A stretch of DNA of 35,334 nucleotides from Chloroflexota bacterium. Lineage in GTDB: Bacteria; Chloroflexota; Anaerolineae; UBA7937. A program made the position numbers and the translations under genes. The stretch is from NCBI GenBank assembly GCA_003453555.1, contig DMLA01000018.1, positions 1-35,334 on the forward strand. The letters run 5' to 3'. The notes below the pieces were generated by a model. It was given only the letters and a program-made list of their open reading frames with translations, ran no database searches and was not told the origin of the DNA. Positions 6,760-12,316 of the stretch are shown in pieces (within the stretch, counting starts at the first letter, position 1; each line of letters begins with the position of its first letter).

Positions 6760-7908
6760 GTGAAAGTCTCCTGCTTGCAAGAGAACTTATCTAGGGGCTT
6801 GGCTATCGTGGGACGGGCGGTGAGCCTGAGGAGCGTCCTCCCTGTGCTCCACAACATCCTCTTGGCCACCGATCAATCCCAGTTGAAACTTTCGGCCACC
6901 GACCTCTCCACCAGCATAACCTGCTGGATCGGGGCCAAGACAAAGGAGGAGGGGGCTACTACCGTCCCCGCTCGGCTCCTAGTGGATTTCGTCAACTCTC
7001 TCCCCCCTGAACAGATCGATTTAGAACTGGTAACTCGTACCCAGACGCTCCACCTCAAATGCGCCCGCACCGAGGCCAATATAAAGGTCATAGATGCCCA
7101 GGAGTTCCCTCTCATCCCCACCGCCATCGAGGATAGGAAGATAACCCTTCAGCCCGAAGCGCTGCGCCAGATGATCGAGCAGGTGACCTTCGCCGCGGCC
7201 ACCGATGAGAGCCGCCCCATCCTCACCGGGGTTTTGGCCGATTTCCAAGAAGCAAAACTTACGCTAGCCGCCGCCGATGGCTTCCGCCTCTCCGTCCGCT
7301 CCGCCCCCTTGAGCGAGCCGGTTCCGGAACCGATGAAGGTGATCATCCCCGCCCGGGCTCTTCAGGAACTGGGCCGAGTGGCCGCCGAGGAGGGAGAACC
7401 GGTGGAGATGACCATCCCTTCCGCCAGGAATCAGGTGCTCTTCCACCTGGCAGGAGGGGCTCTGGGAGGACCGATAGAGGTGGTCTCCCAACTGATCGAG
7501 GGGAACTTTCCTGATTACAAACAGATCATCCCCACCAGTTACAACACCCGCACGGTGGTAGATACTAAGGAGTTCCTGAGGGCGGCCAAGATCGCTTTGC
7601 TCTTCGCCAGAGACGCGGCCAACATCGTCCGCCTGCAGATGGCCCCCGGTGAGGAGGAGCCGGGGAGCCTCACCTTGGCCGCCACTGCCGCCGAGGTGGG
7701 CGATAACGTGGGCCAGATCGACGCCACCATCGAGGGACAAGCGATGGAGATAGCCTTTAACGGCCGGTACCTCATCGACATCTTGAACGTCATAGACTCG
7801 GCCCAGGTGGCTTTAGAGACGAGCACCCCCTCCAGCCCCGGCGTCTTCAGGCCCGTGGGCGACGAAGATTTCGTCCATGTGATAATGCCCATGCATATCA
7901 GTCGGTAA
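6760..7908 (+). CDS. dnaN: DNA polymerase III beta sliding clamp
   Basis: 382 aa with the typical DnaN N-terminus (...L...L..V.RAV..RS.LP.L.NILL) and C-terminal MPM. GTG start preceded by AGGAGG. Confidence 0.93.
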   Translation: MKVSCLQENLSRGLAIVGRAVSLRSVLPVLHNILLATDQSQLKLSATDLSTSITCWIGAKTKEEGATTVPARLLVDFVNSLPPEQIDLELVTRTQTLHLKCARTEANIKVIDAQEFPLIPTAIEDRKITLQPEALRQMIEQVTFAAATDESRPILTGVLADFQEAKLTLAAADGFRLSVRSAPLSEPVPEPMKVIIPARALQELGRVAAEEGEPVEMTIPSARNQVLFHLAGGALGGPIEVVSQLIEGNFPDYKQIIPTSYNTRTVVDTKEFLRAAKIALLFARDAANIVRLQMAPGEEEPGSLTLAATAAEVGDNVGQIDATIEGQAMEIAFNGRYLIDILNVIDSAQVALETSTPSSPGVFRPVGDEDFVHVIMPMHISR

Positions 7909-7999
7909 CCGCTGCCCCCTCATAATGGCCGTAACCGACTACCTTGAACCAGCAAAGGGACCATTCCTGGAGTGGTTCCTTTCTCTTTGCCTCTACCCT

Positions 8000-8008
8000 T
8001 GATATAAT
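8000..8008 (+). promoter_or_regulatory. Candidate extended -10 promoter element for recF
   Basis: TGaTATAAT, ending 16 nt upstream of the recF ATG at 8025. Confidence 0.35.
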
Positions 8009-8024
8009 CGTCGCAGGGGTCGCA

Positions 8025-9236
8025 ATGCGCTTGAAACACCTCTCTCTCACTAATTTCCGTAACTATCTCCGCCTGGAGTTGGATCTCCCCCCACAGATCA
8101 CCCTTCTGCAAGGGGGCAACGCCCAGGGGAAGACCAACCTCCTGGAAGCCATCTACTACCTCTCCGCCGCCAGTTCGCCCCAGGCAGAGGCGGACCACCA
8201 ACTGATCAACTGGCGCGCCTGGGAAGAGGATCTCCCCTTCGCCCGGCTGACAACGGATATAGAGGGTGGCTCTCTCAGAAGGTTGGAGATAACACTGCTT
8301 CCCTCACCCCAAGGAAGTCTGCGTAAAGAGATCAAGATAAACGGCGTGAAGCGGCGGGTGGCCGATCTTTTGGGCCTGCTCAAGGTGGTGATTTTCCTCC
8401 CCGATGATGTGGGGTTGATAGCCGGCTCCCCTAGTCCCCGCCGCCGCTATCTGAACGCTCTCATCTCCCAGGTCGACAGGGCCTATCCCCGGGCTCTACA
8501 GGAGTATGAACGGGTCCTCATCCAGCGGAACTATCTCCTCCGTCGCCTGCGAGAGGGAGGCGATTTGAGCCAGTTGGAGTTCTGGGATGAGCGGTTAGTG
8601 GAGAGAGGTTCCCGACTGATAGCCGCGCGCTTGCGAGCGGTCAGCGCCTTGAACGACCTGGCCCAGGAGATCCATCGCCACTTGACCGGAGGGGAGGAAG
8701 ACCTCCGCCTCTTTTACAAGTCCAGCCTCCCTCTAGAAGGGGGGGCTAAGAGCCCCTACCAACTACCCCTGGATATGCTCCACCATCCAGCATCTCAGAT
8801 GGTCCAACCCCATCTGCCGGCGGAGGAGATCGCCAACCTCTTCCACCAGCGGTTGAGGGAGAGGCGTAGGCAGGAGATAGAGAGGGGCGTTACACTCGTA
8901 GGCCCTCATCGAGACGATCTCCGCTTCTTCATAGGGGGGATGGATCTTACCATCTACGGCTCTCGGGGGCAGCACCGCACCTGCGCCCTATCGTTGAAAT
9001 TGGCTCAGGTGGGGCTCGTCCGCTCTCAAACCGGGGAGCGGCCTATCCTCCTCCTGGATGATGTGATGTCGGAACTCGATCTGGCCCGGCGAGAATATCT
9101 CCGGGCCTCTATCGGCGGCGAGGAGCAGGTGATCATCACGGCCACGGAACTGGCCCCTTTCCCCCCCGACTTTTTGAGAAGGGCGGCCCTCTTCCGCATC
9201 GTAGAGGGGAGAGTGGAACCTTTCTCTGTGCCCTAG
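8025..9236 (+). CDS. recF: DNA replication and repair protein RecF
   Basis: Started at ATG 8025 (MRLKHLSLTNFRNY...). Walker A GGNAQGKTNLLEA. LLLDDVMSELD signature near the C-terminus. The track start 7944 adds 27 non-conserved residues. Confidence 0.9.
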   Translation: MRLKHLSLTNFRNYLRLELDLPPQITLLQGGNAQGKTNLLEAIYYLSAASSPQAEADHQLINWRAWEEDLPFARLTTDIEGGSLRRLEITLLPSPQGSLRKEIKINGVKRRVADLLGLLKVVIFLPDDVGLIAGSPSPRRRYLNALISQVDRAYPRALQEYERVLIQRNYLLRRLREGGDLSQLEFWDERLVERGSRLIAARLRAVSALNDLAQEIHRHLTGGEEDLRLFYKSSLPLEGGAKSPYQLPLDMLHHPASQMVQPHLPAEEIANLFHQRLRERRRQEIERGVTLVGPHRDDLRFFIGGMDLTIYGSRGQHRTCALSLKLAQVGLVRSQTGERPILLLDDVMSELDLARREYLRASIGGEEQVIITATELAPFPPDFLRRAALFRIVEGRVEPFSVP

Positions 9237-9282: not shown

Positions 9283-9374
9283 GCGATGGAGGTCAAGTTT
9301 CTTTAAGTTTTGATACATTCTTCGGTAAATTTGACGTTAAGTGAAATTCCGCCTCCAATAGGAGTAATGCAAAA

Positions 9375-10277
9375 ATGGAGATTGAACATAAGTTAGGCGG
9401 CACACAAGTGGAATATGGCTATATTTGGTGGAAGACAAAGGAGAATGACAAATACAGACAAATCCTTCCTGAGGGGGATTTTACTGTAGATTTGCAGGGC
9501 CAAAAAATCGCTGGGAGAAAGGTTGACTGGAAACAGGGCCGAGTTTACATCGGGAAGAAACCTATGCAGGAATTGTTTCAGAAAGACGATGTCGTTATTA
9601 TTTCAAAGTCTTCTGATGGAAAAGCAGTAATTGTTAGAAAAAAGGAGGGTTATGAGCCCCCACCACCAGATTTAGTTTCTAAGCTACGGGATTCACAACG
9701 AAATACTGATGACCCTACTTCATTTGAAAAAGCGTTAGTCGAGGCTTTCCAATACCTGGGTTTTTCTGCTGAGCATATAGGCGGAAGAGATGAGCCTGAT
9801 ATTCTTATCAATGACGACTTCAAGATAATTCTTGATTCCAAGACTACAAAGGAAGGGGTGATAACCGAGAGATATATTAATTTCAATGCCCTGGATAGAT
9901 ATAAGGAAAAGTATAAAGCAAATCATCTTGGCGTAGTGGCTCCAGGGTTCTCAGAAGGCTATGTCAGAGAAACAGCCAAAAAACGAGGAGTAATCCTTAT
10001 CGAGACCGAAGCAATTTGTAAGCTTTTGGAGAATCACGCAGTCTATCCTTATGAGCCAACCCGAGTTGTTGAGATTTTGTTCAAATCTAGCAAGTGGGTT
10101 ATTAGCACAATGGATATCCCACCATCCACTATTGACCAAGAAAGATTAATAGAAATTACAGCCAAAATTCTTTCAGACATAAGGTCAACGGGCAAGCAAT
10201 CCTTTACCAGTCGAGAACTGCATATTGCATACCAGTGGCAAGGACTTAACTACGAGGTTGATGACATAGAAAATTAG
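9375..10277 (+). pseudogene. 5' fragment (300 codons) of an IS-split gene: N-terminal small beta-barrel-like domain plus FokI-like PD-(D/E)xK nuclease core
   Basis: A+T-rich codon usage unlike the flanks. Residues 118-215 (FEKALVEAFQYLGFSAEHIGGRDEPD...IILDSKTTKEG...RYKEKY...VILIETEAICKLLE) parallel the FokI cleavage domain as I remember it (EFFMKVYGYRGKHLGGSRKPD...VIVDTKAYSGG...RYVEEN). The terminating TAG (10275-10277) is the first three bases of the IS inverted repeat. Confidence 0.7.
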
Positions 10278-10303
10278 GAAATATTTCCGGTTGCCGGTGG
10301 TGA
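10275..10303. repeat. Left terminal inverted repeat of the IS-like element
   Basis: TAGGAAATATTTCCGGTTGCCGGTGGTGA. Contains the perfect 12-bp palindrome GGAAATATTTCC (10277-10288). Confidence 0.75.
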
Positions 10304-10367
10304 GGTGCCAAAGCCGTAGTAGGGGCTGTGGATTTGTGGGGAACACGGAGAGTCGTCCACATATCCA

Positions 10368-11177
10368 TCAGCTTTCCTCTTGGGCAGCAAGGGCCAGATC
10401 GGGATGGAACTCAAGCACGATCTCGTGGTATTGTAGCACAGTCCATAGACCCCGCCCAATGGCATGGCTGATTTCGGTGACATTCAGCCCCTTACCCAAC
10501 AGTACCTTTACACGTTCATAGTCCTTGAGGTAGCGGTCTACCGCTGCCAAGCTGTGGCCGGTGCTGCGAGCGATCTCCGGAGGGCTAACCCCTTTCTCAT
10601 ACAAGCGCACCATGACCCCCTTGTGGGTCGGATTGCTGCCCTGGTCGAGGACGTAGCCCTTGAGCGGCAATACCTCACCGGTTCGCTCGAAGTGGTCCAG
10701 GATGCACCGGCGCACCGTGCTCATGGAACGGTTGATCAGGATGGAGAGGTCAGCCAGGGAGAGGAGGAGTCGCCCCCCGGGGTTGTCCAGGCCCCCTTTC
10801 ACCAGGCGGACCACACGGCGGATGTCCCGTTCGTGCCCCCAGACGCGGGCGTGTTTGCCCTTGGGGCAACCCTGGGCCAACTCGGCGATATCCTCGGCAG
10901 TGATCAAGGGCAGCACTGCGGTGACAGTAGGCTCATCCTCCGCGCGTCGCCCGGCCCGTGGTTTGCGTCCTTCGTCCAATGTCCCTCGCCAGACGATGTG
11001 GCCCGGAGGCACCAGGTCGCCATCCCGGTAGTACTCCCTGTGCAGGTCAGCGATGTCATCGGCGATCATCTGGATCACCCTGTGGCTGCCCACCAACTTG
11101 TACTCCTTCTCCAACAGGTGGATGATGGCCTGCCGGAAAGTGCGCTGGGTGGCCGCGTGGTAGTGATTCCTGCTCAT
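10368..11177 (-). CDS. IS-borne ORF B: multi-HTH protein, paralog of ORF A
   Basis: 269 aa from ATG 11177 (MSRNHYHAATQ...). ATGA overlap with the ORF A stop. Aligns with ORF A over its full length (SLADLSILINRSMSTVRRCI, SPPEIARSTGHSLAAVDRYL, VTEISHAIGRGLWTVLQY). The upstream 93 codons in the track lie inside ORF A. Confidence 0.75.
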   Translation of the reverse strand: MSRNHYHAATQRTFRQAIIHLLEKEYKLVGSHRVIQMIADDIADLHREYYRDGDLVPPGHIVWRGTLDEGRKPRAGRRAEDEPTVTAVLPLITAEDIAELAQGCPKGKHARVWGHERDIRRVVRLVKGGLDNPGGRLLLSLADLSILINRSMSTVRRCILDHFERTGEVLPLKGYVLDQGSNPTHKGVMVRLYEKGVSPPEIARSTGHSLAAVDRYLKDYERVKVLLGKGLNVTEISHAIGRGLWTVLQYHEIVLEFHPDLALAAQEES

Positions 11178-12001
11178 CACACCCCCCTTTTTGGCACCGC
11201 AACCCAGTGTTGGGTGCCGGCGCTGACCATCTGAACCATCTCTGCCAGCCGATCTTGATACTCTGGGATGTCGTAGCGCCAGTAAAGCTCCAGGTACTCC
11301 TGAGTCAGCCGCTCGGAGATGGCCACGGCGTAAGCGATCCCCCTCACCTTCAGGCCCTTGCGCCTCAACATCACCACCCGACCAAAGGTCTGGAGGTAGC
11401 GCTTGATGGCGTAAGCGGAGTGGCGGGTGCGCTGCATGATCTCGGTGTAAGTGCAACGCTTGAGGTACAGCTCCACGATGAGCACTTTGTGGCTCTGCCC
11501 ACGGCCCACCCCCCGCAGCTTGCCGCGTGTAGCCACCCGGTAGCCTTCTGCTTCAAGGAGAGCAATGTCTGAGCGGACGGTGCGCGCAGACACGCCCAGG
11601 GCCTTGGCTAGGTCTTCTTGCGTCGGCTCGCCTCCCTGCTCCAGGGCCTCGTCAACCAGACGCAGAATGCGCACCCGGCGCAAGGCGATATGGTTGTGCC
11701 TTCTGAGCACGGCCAGGTCCTCCTCGCCTGCATCGAGCGTCCAGGTCACCTCTACCATATCCGTCTGGTGCAGAGGACGGCCGTGAGGCGCACCGGCTGC
11801 GGCAATTACTTGACGAATCTGTCCGGGCCGTAGGCGGCCGGATGGATCACCAGAAACGGCATGGAGGCTGAAGACTTCCTTGGCTAACTCCAGAATGCCT
11901 TCCGAGACCCGGGGAGCCAGCTCAAATCCAGTCTCGAGCTCGTGACGAAACCGTTGATCCAGTGTCTTGACCGCCAGACGGTCAATTGCAGTACGTACCA
12001 T
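11177..12001 (-). CDS. IS-borne ORF A: multi-HTH protein, paralog of ORF B (possibly DUF1670-like, unverified)
   Basis: 274 aa from ATG 12001, which has AGGAGG 6 nt upstream. The track start 12028 lacks an RBS. HTH-like segments TQEDLAKALGVSARTVRSDI, TYTEIMQRTRHSAYAIKRYL, VRGIAYAVAISERLTQEYL. Confidence 0.75.
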   Translation of the reverse strand: MVRTAIDRLAVKTLDQRFRHELETGFELAPRVSEGILELAKEVFSLHAVSGDPSGRLRPGQIRQVIAAAGAPHGRPLHQTDMVEVTWTLDAGEEDLAVLRRHNHIALRRVRILRLVDEALEQGGEPTQEDLAKALGVSARTVRSDIALLEAEGYRVATRGKLRGVGRGQSHKVLIVELYLKRCTYTEIMQRTRHSAYAIKRYLQTFGRVVMLRRKGLKVRGIAYAVAISERLTQEYLELYWRYDIPEYQDRLAEMVQMVSAGTQHWVAVPKRGV

Positions 12002-12037
12002 AGCATGCCTCCTGTGGTGAGGTACCATTCGCCGAAG

Positions 12038-12066
12038 AGTCTACCTCAATCGGCATCCTTATCCAA
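12038..12066 (-). promoter_or_regulatory. Candidate internal promoter of the IS-like element
   Basis: On the minus strand: TTGGAT (12066-12061), 17-nt spacer, TAGACT (12043-12038). It lies just inside IR-R, about 36 nt upstream of the ORF A ATG. Confidence 0.3.
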
Positions 12067-12071
12067 CCCCA

Positions 12072-12099
12072 TCACCTCGGCATGCGGAAAAATTTCCTA
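12072..12099. repeat. Right terminal inverted repeat of the IS-like element
   Basis: Reverse complement reads TAGGAAATTTTTCCGCATGCCGAGGTGA. About 24 positions match IR-L, with one indel. Contains the near-palindrome GGAAAAATTTCC. Confidence 0.75.
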
Positions 12100-12258
12100 A
12101 ATGTAAATGCTTTAGAGTTTTTGTCAACCACACCATTCAGTATTATCACAAAAGAAGAGAACAAGTATTTTGTTTCAGATGATATAGATACTGTACTAAA
12201 GAAAATAGGGTTGCTTCTTCAAGCATTCAACAGGATCAGGGGTGCAGAACTTCACTAA
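12100..12258 (+). pseudogene. 3' fragment (51 codons plus stop) of the IS-split nuclease gene
   Basis: After the duplicated AAT, 12103-12258 reads VNALEFLSTTPFSIITKEENKYFVSDDIDTVLKKIGLLLQAFNRIRGAELH*, in phase with 9375-10274. The other two forward frames hit stops at about 12104 and about 12180. Same A+T-rich codon style. Confidence 0.6.
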
Positions 12259-12286
12259 ACACGCAAAGCGTTATACCAGCCACATA

Positions 12287-12316
12287 AGTAGGGCGGGTTT
12301 CTATACCTGCCCTACT
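12287..12316. terminator. Hairpin between the islet gene and rsmG (possible terminator)
   Basis: AGTAGGGC (12287-12294) pairs with GCCCTACT (12309-12316), 14-nt loop, followed by CTTTGCTT. Confidence 0.3.

Follow-up and report, generated by a model that had tools for sequence, protein, structure and literature searches.

The window analyzed here, a 35,334-nt stretch of Chloroflexota DNA taken as a whole, contains a gene for a restriction endonuclease that is split by an element with inverted-repeat ends and two minus-strand genes, ORF-A and ORF-B (Table 1). Both encoded proteins belong to DUF1670, a family that the preliminary description of the locus had tentatively likened them to: they match nearly all of the 220-position Pfam profile (PF07900; ORF-A 151.3 bits, E 3.3e-44; ORF-B 148.7 bits, E 2.1e-43) and thereby exceed its gathering cut-off of 25 bits. 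As had also been proposed, the two are paralogous end to end (BLASTP, 34% identity over 121 aa, E 9e-13; hhalign, 99.4% probability over 226 columns). The protein lengths had been given correctly, but not the ATGA overlap between the genes, which is found in other subfamilies; in the window copy, the ORF-A stop overlaps the ORF-B start by 1 nt (TGATG). Both genes are under purifying selection (dN/dS of 0.09–0.23 for ORF-A and 0.11–0.20 for ORF-B, with dS up to 2), and no other selected ORF lies between the repeats. A MITE or other non-autonomous deletion derivative would have no conserved coding capacity, whereas two full-length selected ORFs are present here. A 256-aa plus-strand ORF without a Pfam match was considered as a hidden antisense gene and rejected, as the sense genes show a high dS, which speaks against such a gene.

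Table 1. Features of the element and of the interrupted host gene (window coordinates).
Feature	Position	Strand	Description
Host gene, 5' part	9375..10272	+	FokI-cleavage/Mrr-like restriction endonuclease, A+T-rich
Left junction repeat AA	10271..10272		AA before ATTAGG in 29/33 distinct left flanks
Element proper (best-supported extent)	10273..12104	-	1832 bp, ATTAGG...CCTAAATGT; from host-homologue alignments, 1840-nt shared block and flank census
Inverted repeat at ORF-B end ('short tip')	10273..10305		One nt (A) outside the TTAGG arm
Palindrome GGAAATATTTCC	10277..10288		Inside the ORF-B-end repeat
Hairpin directly 3' of ORF-B stop	10329..10367	-	TGGATATGTGG...CCACATATCCA type
ORF-B	10368..11177	-	269 aa, DUF1670
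ORF-A	11177..12001	-	274 aa, DUF1670, paralogue of ORF-B
Leader upstream of ORF-A	12002..12071	-	GGAGG ribosome-binding site, about 12008-12012
Inverted repeat at ORF-A end ('long tip')	12072..12104		Four nt (ATGT) outside the CCTAA arm
Palindrome GGAAAAATTTCC	12086..12097		Inside the ORF-A-end repeat
Right junction repeat AA	12105..12106		AA after CCTAA + 4 nt in 22/23 distinct right flanks
Host gene, 3' part	12107..12258	+	Gapless protein and DNA alignment to homologues once 1834 nt are removed

The AlphaFold model of ORF-B (pLDDT 82.9) comprises an alpha/beta domain at the N-terminus, a winged HTH and two more HTH, with just two beta-strands in all; for ORF-A, the model of the N-terminal domain is poor, and the well-modelled two-thirds of each protein consist of HTH modules. 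Of the three HTH-like segments originally suggested for each protein, two are recovered by Pfam, the third by the AlphaFold model only. Polar residues that are invariant throughout the family (D96, R124, D143, D178, H185-K186, H208, R215-Y216 and Y250 in ORF-B numbering) may do no more than contact DNA or stabilise the protein core; the equivalent ORF-A residues are D95, R114, D130, H171, K172, H194, R201, Y202 and Y236. Natural fusions of two to four DUF1670 units occur without any other domain, which suggests that the units act as an oligomer. No relevant literature on the family (PF07900, IPR012871) was found in the library searched. JGI annotations name relatives as Lrp/CsgD-type regulators.

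Outside the genes, the hairpin that follows ORF-B has arms that are kept across subfamilies and variable loops (RNA fold z-score -3.1); a T-run terminator was not found there. A 5'-end alignment of eight subfamilies revealed a conserved TA(G/A)ACT motif at 12038-12043 in the ORF-A leader, which resembles a -10 box and may be part of a promoter. Rfam gave no match at E values up to 1 over 10100-12300, group I/II introns and ribozymes included, and an RNA element was rejected on this basis.

Extent of the insertion and its junctions

The interrupted gene has weak Pfam matches to Mrr_cat and FokI_cleav_dom and a PADLOC match to REase_II; about 100 homologues of ~350 aa are available, many covering 98–100% of the rejoined protein. 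Alignment to 19 uninterrupted homologues indicates that the inserted DNA amounts to 1834 nt rather than 1828, as removal of 1834 nt gives gapless alignments at both the protein and the DNA level (...ATAGAAAATGCTTTAGAG...). The protein collection holds no host-gene allele above 71% identity, so that the empty site of the window insertion, predicted to read GACATAGAAAATGCTTTAGAG, can be inferred from homologues only. The best-supported element would thus run from 10273 to 12104 with a 2-nt repeat, AA, on either side, the register being ambiguous by up to 4 nt within a total of 1834 nt of inserted DNA. Frame restoration at other insertion sites, where many contigs are chimeric, fixes the inserted length modulo 3 only.

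These boundaries lie outside those of the preliminary description, which had placed symmetric TAGG...CCTA ends at 10275-12099, flanked by a 3-bp AAT target duplication and implying an empty allele GAAAATGTAAATGCT. AAT is indeed present on both sides, and deletion of 10275-12102 does restore the host ORF; the restored frame, however, contains two extra residues, NV, that are lacking in 19/19 aligned homologues, and the same deletion leaves 6 nt that are absent from two homologous genes. Moreover, a stretch of 1840 nt (10270-12109) is 100% identical among independent copies, whose flanks part from each other exactly at 10270 and 12109; each AAT lies inside this block and does not demonstrate a duplication. 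In several subfamilies, all copies, which lie at unrelated sites, continue after CCTA with AATGTAA(AT), and copies of the P0036 type have AAAT on the left and AAAG, AATA, AACA, AAGT or AATT on the right. Taken together, a symmetric element with a 3-bp duplication has hardly any chance of being the correct anatomy.

The imperfect terminal inverted repeats themselves were borne out: 22 nt of the left repeat recur on the opposite strand at 12078-12099 with 3 mismatches (0 expected by chance), and the complete repeats measure ~33 nt with ~26 matches shared, again with 0 chance matches expected. Their tips are asymmetric, extending 1 nt and 4 nt beyond the TTAGG/CCTAA arms. Each repeat carries a palindrome as described, and the two are the only occurrences of GGAAAnnTTTCC in 35 kb (0.05 expected). 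The one at 10277-10288 is likely to be a binding site for a protein dimer. At the same place, the palindrome differs between lineages (GGAAAnnTTTCC, GGCAATATTGCC, GGACAnnTGTCC, GAGGCCAnATGGCCTC or GGTGACAnnTGTCACC), and such a change along with the protein lineage fits proteins that read their own ends.

In the window copy, the junction repeat can be read as AAAT (10271-10274 = 12105-12108), and the recurrent part across 33 left and 23 right flanks is AA; one relative (L020) has TA at both junctions. This 2-nt repeat may reflect a true duplication, a shared crossover core or no duplication at all. A 4-bp AAAT duplication as a general rule was rejected, since it fits the window copy but not the five different tetranucleotides in the right flanks of P0036-type copies, and a TA duplication with GG...CC ends, as in IS630, fails to restore the host gene. 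If joined, the ends would place inverted arms on either side of a 7-nt spacer (CCTAA-ATGTAAA-TTAGG), with a 2-nt core common to the target, target homology being confined to one side of the spacer; the joined-ends sequence predicted for a circle or tandem copy is TTTCCTAAATGTAAATTAGGAAA. That the long tip is dif/Xer-like was considered and discarded in view of the many insertion sites, which have only AA(AT) in common. No CCTAA-N(2-12)-TTAGG junction indicative of an excised circle or tandem was present in any fetched locus, the sole match being a trivial short-tip one in L015. Likewise, no empty site was recovered from metagenome contigs with a gapped pattern modelled on the L004 insertion, the site of which is itself part of another insertion sequence.

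The contrast in base composition pointed out previously between a G+C-rich element (58–66%) and its A+T-rich host gene (~40%) is real, but since the surrounding genome has ~60% G+C, the outlier is the host gene and not the element. The element prefers short A-rich targets in locally A+T-rich DNA, AAAATG in the case of the window subfamily, and there appears to be a preference for DNA that is A+T-rich and horizontally acquired. Of the insertion sites examined, two lie in restriction-modification genes.

Copies and distribution

Chloroflexi metagenomes and MAGs contain identical or near-identical copies in numerous unrelated flanks. ORF-A proteins identical to that of the window are encoded on seven contigs, and among relatives the number of different left flanks is at least 8 each for P0022 and P0036, 4 for P0086 and 3 for P0341. 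The boundaries are sharp and constant at unrelated sites, as expected of an insertion sequence present in multiple copies, and with 1832 bp and terminal inverted repeats the element also has the dimensions of one (<2.5 kb). Two contigs of one MAG (DAOTUH01) carry one copy each, and some copies are located inside other insertion sequences and restriction-modification genes. Most matches sit on contigs of ~1.8–2 kb, which is expected for collapsed repeats. All copies are known from MAGs and metagenomes, many of whose contigs are chimeric across the repeat; plasmid records gave no match. The same two-gene, inverted-repeat layout was found in Chloroflexi, in a Saprospiraceae MAG and in a Thermoplasmatota archaeon; relatives of the P0333 type (L062-L064) were left out, as they show no clear flanking inverted repeat.

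The split host gene with its intact homologues, together with copies in many different flanks, identifies the element as mobile. The 1.83-kb unit evidently moves as a block into unrelated sites, in agreement with the mobility originally claimed and at variance with a single-copy coincidence. That the cassette is no transposon but a regulatory or addiction module spread by homologous recombination, or an assembly artefact, has a probability close to negligible. Its proteins do resemble transcription factors, and relatives carry regulator names in the JGI annotations; yet the cassette ends in inverted repeats and splits the host gene precisely, its sharp boundaries are identical at many unrelated flanks and copies of it sit within other insertion sequences and restriction-modification genes. 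The shared 1840-nt block, the host-gene alignments and the flank census already contradict such an explanation.

Catalytic machinery and competing explanations

The statement that the element encodes no recognisable transposase held up when matches to known transposases or recombinases were sought in Pfam, NCBIfam, PDB profiles and Foldseek. Pfam returned DUF1670 and HTH families only for both proteins. In NCBIfam, the best transposase model (IS630) scored 16.4 bits against a cut-off of 100 and covered a 35-residue HTH only. Against PDB sequence profiles, no E value fell below 0.02. Foldseek with the ORF-B model placed HTH arrays on top with no PDB match at E <0.001, the fold search with ORF-A yielded winged-helix repressors only, and PHROGs and PADLOC produced HTH-only matches for the element proteins. 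With respect to individual classes, Pfam, NCBIfam and Foldseek disclosed neither an RNase-H-like domain with an acidic triad (DDE/DEDD; IS630, IS21, IS3, IS110 and others) nor an HUH/Y1 or Y2 nuclease domain (IS200/IS605, IS91). A resolvase or phage-integrase catalytic domain was likewise not detected, the nearest signals being a weak HTH_7 DNA-binding motif (E 0.005) and XerA in Foldseek (E 0.89, probability 0.09).

We consider it the likelier account, with moderate confidence, that the locus harbors an active or recently active IS-like transposable element of an undescribed family that uses the DUF1670 pair as its own transposition machinery. What defines this family is a pair of paralogous DUF1670 proteins whose genes are translationally coupled. 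That the pair belongs to the element is supported by its being the sole selected ORFs between the repeats, by the layout kept across phyla and by the lack of a transposase or recombinase recurring as neighbor. A and B would form a hetero-oligomer that binds the palindrome and the inner repeat at each end and draws the ends together; the machinery would most likely include DNA breakage and joining, in which case its active site would be one that current profiles and fold libraries miss. Our confidence in an autonomous pair is lowered by the lack of a catalytic fold or motif in either protein and by the failure to recover an empty site, circle or tandem junction. More tentative, and in our estimate somewhat short of an even chance, is the extended proposal that DUF1670 constitutes a new transposase/recombinase class, built from HTH modules and a small N-terminal alpha/beta domain, acting as an A/B hetero-oligomer, unrelated to DDE, DEDD, HUH, serine, tyrosine and Cas1 enzymes, and driving a widespread IS family of ~1300 clusters at 50% identity in Bacteria and Archaea.

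A new transposase type and a DNA-binding pair that recruits an enzyme, the two alternatives named at the outset, remain the two live explanations. According to the latter, which we regard as rather unlikely though well worth weighing, the element is catalytically non-autonomous: the role of A and B is confined to recognising and pairing the ends, or to regulation, while an unlinked transposase or a host recombinase or nuclease cuts and joins. Some integrative elements exploit host Xer recombinases in an analogous manner. The lack of a catalytic domain in both proteins is in line with this explanation, as is the resemblance of the joined ends, with their 7-nt spacer and 2-nt core, to a site-specific recombination site. 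The targets, however, share only AA(AT) and offer no binding arms for a host recombinase, and conservation of the layout across bacterial and archaeal phyla would require the same outside enzyme to be present and co-evolving everywhere. Also, no neighboring gene recurs beside the element, be it for a transposase, a recombinase or any other protein, and a narrow repeat-pattern scan of metagenomes found seven stretches, all DUF1670 elements where the sequence allowed a check, and thus no parent element with the same repeats and other cargo, which is weak negative evidence. There is also a slim chance of single-strand transposition as in IS200/IS605, with insertion 3' of AAAT, no duplication and the palindromes acting as DNA hairpins. 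The asymmetric tips and the hairpin-capable palindrome at each end would suit this mode, as would left flanks that almost always end in AAAT next to right flanks that vary in some subfamilies; its sequence outcome would be the same as for a 2-nt duplication. What speaks against it is the missing HUH/Y1 transposase, the TA at both junctions of L020 and the true ~33-bp inverted repeats, which reach well past the palindrome and fit double-stranded recognition by HTH proteins. Overall, the original interpretation of the locus is supported and was wrong only in fine anatomy, namely in where the element ends, in the 3-bp duplication and in the overlap given as ATGA.

Comparison with known systems

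Pfam lists DUF1670 as a family without assigned function, to which our analysis adds the link to a mobile element with inverted-repeat ends. With IS630/Tc1-mariner, the element shares small size, terminal inverted repeats and an A/T dinucleotide repeated at the junctions, and its C-terminal pair of HTH is similar to the paired-like DNA-binding domain (Pfam HTH_23/HTH_29), with a match to the NCBIfam IS630 N-terminus (E 0.005) and with Pax paired domains near the top of the Foldseek list; it differs in lacking a DDE/D domain, in repeating AA instead of TA, in having two paralogous genes instead of one and in its asymmetric tips. IS21 (IstA/IstB) also has two coupled genes between inverted repeats, and a weak HTH similarity to IstA (IS5376; E ~0.9) was noted, but the DUF1670 element has neither a DDE domain nor an AAA+ helper, and its two genes are paralogous. 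IS607 (serine) and Tn916/CTnDOT (tyrosine) resemble it in the 2-nt core at both junctions and in the inverted arms around a 7-nt spacer, but not in their resolvase or phage-integrase domains. Asymmetric ends with palindromes, a short target motif and perhaps the absence of a true duplication are reminiscent of IS200/IS605, from which the long true inverted repeats and the lack of an HUH transposase and of TnpB set it apart. Topoisomerase V derives its active site from HTH motifs, a tyrosine within HTH modules cleaving and religating DNA. DUF1670 shows no sequence or fold match to it among the Foldseek top matches, and the likeness, a conceptual analogy only, lies in the invariant R, H-K, H, R-Y and Y within its HTH modules.

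Annotation pipelines label these genes as regulators or hypothetical, so that the insertions are missed, and the element breaks up Chloroflexi genome assemblies. A 1.8-kb construct and two small proteins make both readings, an autonomous pair and a recruited enzyme, directly testable. To our knowledge, the well-studied prokaryotic transposable elements all use DDE, DEDD, HUH, serine, tyrosine or Cas1 enzymes. The present element combines compact size and clear mobility with a wide taxonomic distribution, and the only two genes that it carries belong to none of those classes: either they encode a new enzyme for DNA breakage and joining, or the element illustrates a new way of borrowing one.

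Ends of the element and the interrupted gene

The interruption of a host gene, as claimed in the preliminary description, is real: the split gene, located between dnaN-recF and rsmG, encodes a FokI-cleavage/Mrr-like restriction endonuclease with about 100 homologues of ~350 aa, many spanning 98–100% of the rejoined protein. The rejoining proposed there (DDIENVNALEFLS) has two residues too many relative to the aligned homologues, which read D(D/E)IE-NAL(E/K)FLS at the join in 19 of 19 cases. At the DNA level, taking out 1834 nt gives a model empty site that matches two uninterrupted homologous genes without any gap; one of these genes reads GATGAAATCGAAAATGCTTTGAGG where the window has GATGACATAGAAAAT–GCTTTAGAG. 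Judged from these protein and gap-free DNA alignments, the insertion comprises 1834 nt, with AAAATG contained in the target.

The inverted repeats stand as described: the left repeat (22 nt) has an inverted counterpart at the right end with 3 mismatches, where none would be expected by chance, and each repeat carries the palindrome GGAAAnnTTTCC, present only twice in the 35-kb window. In a census of 33 distinct left and 23 distinct right flanks, constant sequence starts with ATTAGG on one side and stops on the other with CCTAA plus four bases (ATGT in the window; CTGT, CTCT, ACGA and TTGT in other subfamilies). Immediately outside lies AA, in 29/33 left and 22/23 right flanks; the relative L020 has TA at both sides. 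Copies of the P0036 subfamily must have moved recently, since their encoded proteins are identical. Their left side is constantly AAAT whereas the right reads AAAG, AATA, AACA, AAGT or AATT, which assigns AT to the element and leaves AA alone as the repeat. Neither the census nor the P0036 copies bear out the 3-bp AAT duplication initially assumed, and the ends, first placed at 10275 and 12099, are best supported at 10273-12104, giving 1832 bp with AA on either side. The target of the window subfamily is AAAATG at three sites, which explains why AAAT looks duplicated in the window and why 1840 rather than 1832 nt are common to copies. The AA repeat could represent a true 2-bp duplication, a 2-nt crossover core or insertion beside AA without duplication, all three of which would leave the same sequence.

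Outside the TTAGG/CCTAA arms lie 1 nt at one tip and 4 nt at the other in every subfamily, and by analogy an archaeal relative (45% protein identity) appears likewise asymmetric (CTACAA-AA-A-TGAGG...CCTCA-TTGA-AA). If the two tips were joined, a 7-nt spacer would lie between inverted arms (CCTAA-ATGTAAA-TTAGG). Only in the window's subfamily does the long tip precede ORF-A; in all others it is found beyond ORF-B. Comparing window 10270-10276 and 12098-12109 with the related loci L001, L016, L040, L030 and L057, we found that the window copy and L015 have long and short tips exchanged with respect to the genes, unlike all other subfamilies, while the inner repeat parts stay in place relative to the genes; if the interior between the two terminal palindromes had inverted, such an exchange would result. 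A promoter-like site (10/12 matches) crosses the junction of the window copy, with TTGACA in the host flank, 16 nt, and TACATT within the long tip; by inserting there, this copy may have gained a hybrid promoter directed into ORF-A.

The reported G+C contrast is present (element 58–66%, host gene ~40%), but the outlier is the host gene and not the element, because the surrounding genome has ~60% G+C. The endonuclease is the sole gene of the A+T-rich island, with no adjacent methyltransferase, and N-terminal domains vary among its relatives (Mrr_N, HARE-HTH). The island's neighbours are dnaN, recF and rsmG (gidB), which makes a position of the window near the chromosomal replication origin probable.

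Features of the element and its surroundings in the window
Feature	Position	Strand	Size or remark
Element, best-supported ends	10273-12104		1832 bp
Sequence shared with identical copy	10270-12109		1840 nt
ORF-A	12001-11177	minus	274 aa
ORF-B	11177-10368	minus	269 aa
Right inverted repeat	12078-12099		22 nt
Left palindrome	10277-10288
Right palindrome	12086-12097
Hairpin at ORF-B stop codon	10329-10367
Promoter-like site	12100-12127	minus
A+T-rich island, recF-rsmG	9300-12300
dnaN, recF	6760-9236
rsmG (gidB)	12326-13045

Copies, flanks and target choice

Seven contigs from other samples encode an ORF-A protein identical to the window's; two of them are the bare repeat unit, and a third, different in both flanks, matches the window at 100% identity over precisely the shared 1840 nt. 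A copy in an Anaerolineales MAG, 94.8% identical, diverges at the same two points, 10270 and 12109. Four relatives (ORF-A 78%, 76% and 73% identical; ORF-B 48%) each occur, protein unchanged, in several unrelated flanks, some copies lying inside other insertion sequences and adjoining CRISPR-associated genes. Each protein has ~500 close homologues, most of them on 1.8–2 kb contigs, the signature of an assembly-breaking repeat. On many longer contigs left and right flanks are paired in all permutations; these contigs are chimeric across the repeat, and we therefore relied on flank censuses rather than left-right pairings. Multi-copy and with the same boundaries at unrelated flanks, the element is real, mobile, as had been claimed, and widespread.

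Eight independent sites on longer contigs were compared with their loci: in seven, G+C over the 150 nt to either side of the element falls 8–20 points below that of the remaining locus. Two sites lie in restriction-modification genes, namely the window endonuclease and, at L016, a type I specificity subunit (Methylase_S, E 3e-10). A short A-rich target alone would steer insertions to A+T-rich, often foreign, DNA in the G+C-rich genomes concerned.

DUF1670 elements repeatedly lie inside or abut other insertion sequences (L004, L030-L037, L046, L035), including DDE_5, DDE_Tnp_1, DDE_Tnp_1_4, IS1595 and IS21 IstB fragments. At L022/L023 (Saprospiraceae MAG contig_44), a 2994-nt perfect inverted duplication, its arms 715 nt apart, spans most of a DUF1670 element and a 367-aa ORF. 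The duplication may be genuine, a palindromic rearrangement, or an artefact of long-read assembly; the right tip of this copy is without the usual TAA-NNNN-AA. In three samples (L062-L064; P0333-type, ORF-B 50% identical), a 247-aa gene and an HTH_3 gene, the same each time, come after the pair; a clear flanking inverted repeat was not found there, and these loci may represent an element of larger size or a copy that has become immobile.

The two DUF1670 proteins

Two minus-strand genes indeed fill the interior, but the ATGA overlap ascribed to them occurs in other subfamilies, the window copy having TGATG with an overlap of one base. The suggested resemblance to DUF1670 was correct (Pfam, 151 bits for ORF-A and 149 for ORF-B versus a cut-off of 25), as was whole-length paralogy (BLASTP E 9e-13; hhalign 99.4% over 226 columns). 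Further Pfam matches are a winged HTH (ORF-A) and a motif of HTH_23/HTH_29 type (ORF-B). In the good AlphaFold model of ORF-B (mean pLDDT 82.9), a winged HTH and two more HTH units come after a small N-terminal domain that comprises helices 14-25 and 32-49, strands 60-67 and 84-90, and helices 94-102 and 110-130; the model of ORF-A is confident from about residue 100 onward only. Among 1.84 billion representatives searched by profile, 1309 DUF1670 clusters were found; their long members consist of two to four fused DUF1670 units and contain no other domain.

Polar residues conserved family-wide (ORF-B numbering) are D96, R124, D143, D178, H185-K186, H208, R215-Y216 and Y250; the corresponding ORF-A positions are invariant even among distant relatives, except that D178 is glycine in A-type proteins. 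Most lie within HTH units or between them. A role in DNA contact is possible, but any unrecognised active site would most obviously be sought among these residues.

A hairpin without a following T-run begins at the ORF-B stop codon, also in L020, L022, L030, L040, L019 and L016. Its arms (TGGATATGTGG / CCACATATCCA) are nucleotide-conserved across subfamilies, the loop varying in length and sequence; L001, L017 and L028, from three subfamilies, have a different, G-rich hairpin instead. The element has no Rfam match, and the antisense ORF no Pfam match.

Probable transposition function and known systems

In agreement with the preliminary description, which saw no transposase or recombinase motif in the translations, neither protein matches an established transposase or recombinase in Pfam, NCBIfam, PDB-sequence profiles or Foldseek. 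NCBIfam transposase models, which derive from ISfinder families, gave no match, the best, IS630, reaching 16.4 bits (cut-off 100) and covering no more than a 35-residue HTH. PDB-sequence profile searches retrieved HTH proteins only (E 0.02 or worse). Foldseek gave the ORF-B model no PDB match with E <0.001; its top matches are HTH/winged-helix arrays (Pax paired domain, SelB, Spo0J; TM-scores all <0.25), and a viral library yielded a single marginal multi-HTH match (TM-score 0.14). ORF-A matched just MntR/DtxR/Rex-type repressors.

The main rival explanation would be that the pair only recognises the ends while an enzyme encoded elsewhere performs the chemistry. The element has no recurrent neighbouring gene, and a narrow metagenome scan for the repeat sequence returned DUF1670 elements only (7 matches, where checkable). 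Between element lineages, both genes are under purifying selection (dN/dS 0.09–0.23, dS up to ~2). The terminal palindrome differs by protein lineage (GGAAAnnTTTCC, GGCAATATTGCC, GGACAnnTGTCC, GAGGCCAnATGGCCTC, GGTGACAnnTGTCACC), as expected if the proteins read their own ends. Because of the selection, the lineage-specific palindromes, the lack of a recurring neighbour and the outcome of the scan, we favour an autonomous element with the DUF1670 pair as its probable transposition machinery, and consider dependence on an outside enzyme rather unlikely. There is a substantial chance, if somewhat short of even, that DUF1670 proteins would constitute a categorically new transposase class.

A literature search returned no paper on DUF1670, PF07900 or IPR012871, and broader phrases nothing relevant; relatives are named "DUF1670 domain-containing protein" at NCBI and regulators at JGI. 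Novelty was judged from Pfam, NCBIfam, PDB and the literature, and the element may have been curated in ISfinder before. For every transposase class tested, the defining catalytic domain was not recognisable in the element. Unlike IS630/Tc1-mariner elements, the DUF1670 element is without a DDE domain and its repeat is AA, not TA; like them, it has a 2-nt junction repeat, and the DNA-binding half of its proteins is similar. It differs from site-specific recombination systems in having no recombinase domain and resembles their core in the architecture of its joined ends. With its corrected ends and junction repeat, the element behaves as an insertion sequence.
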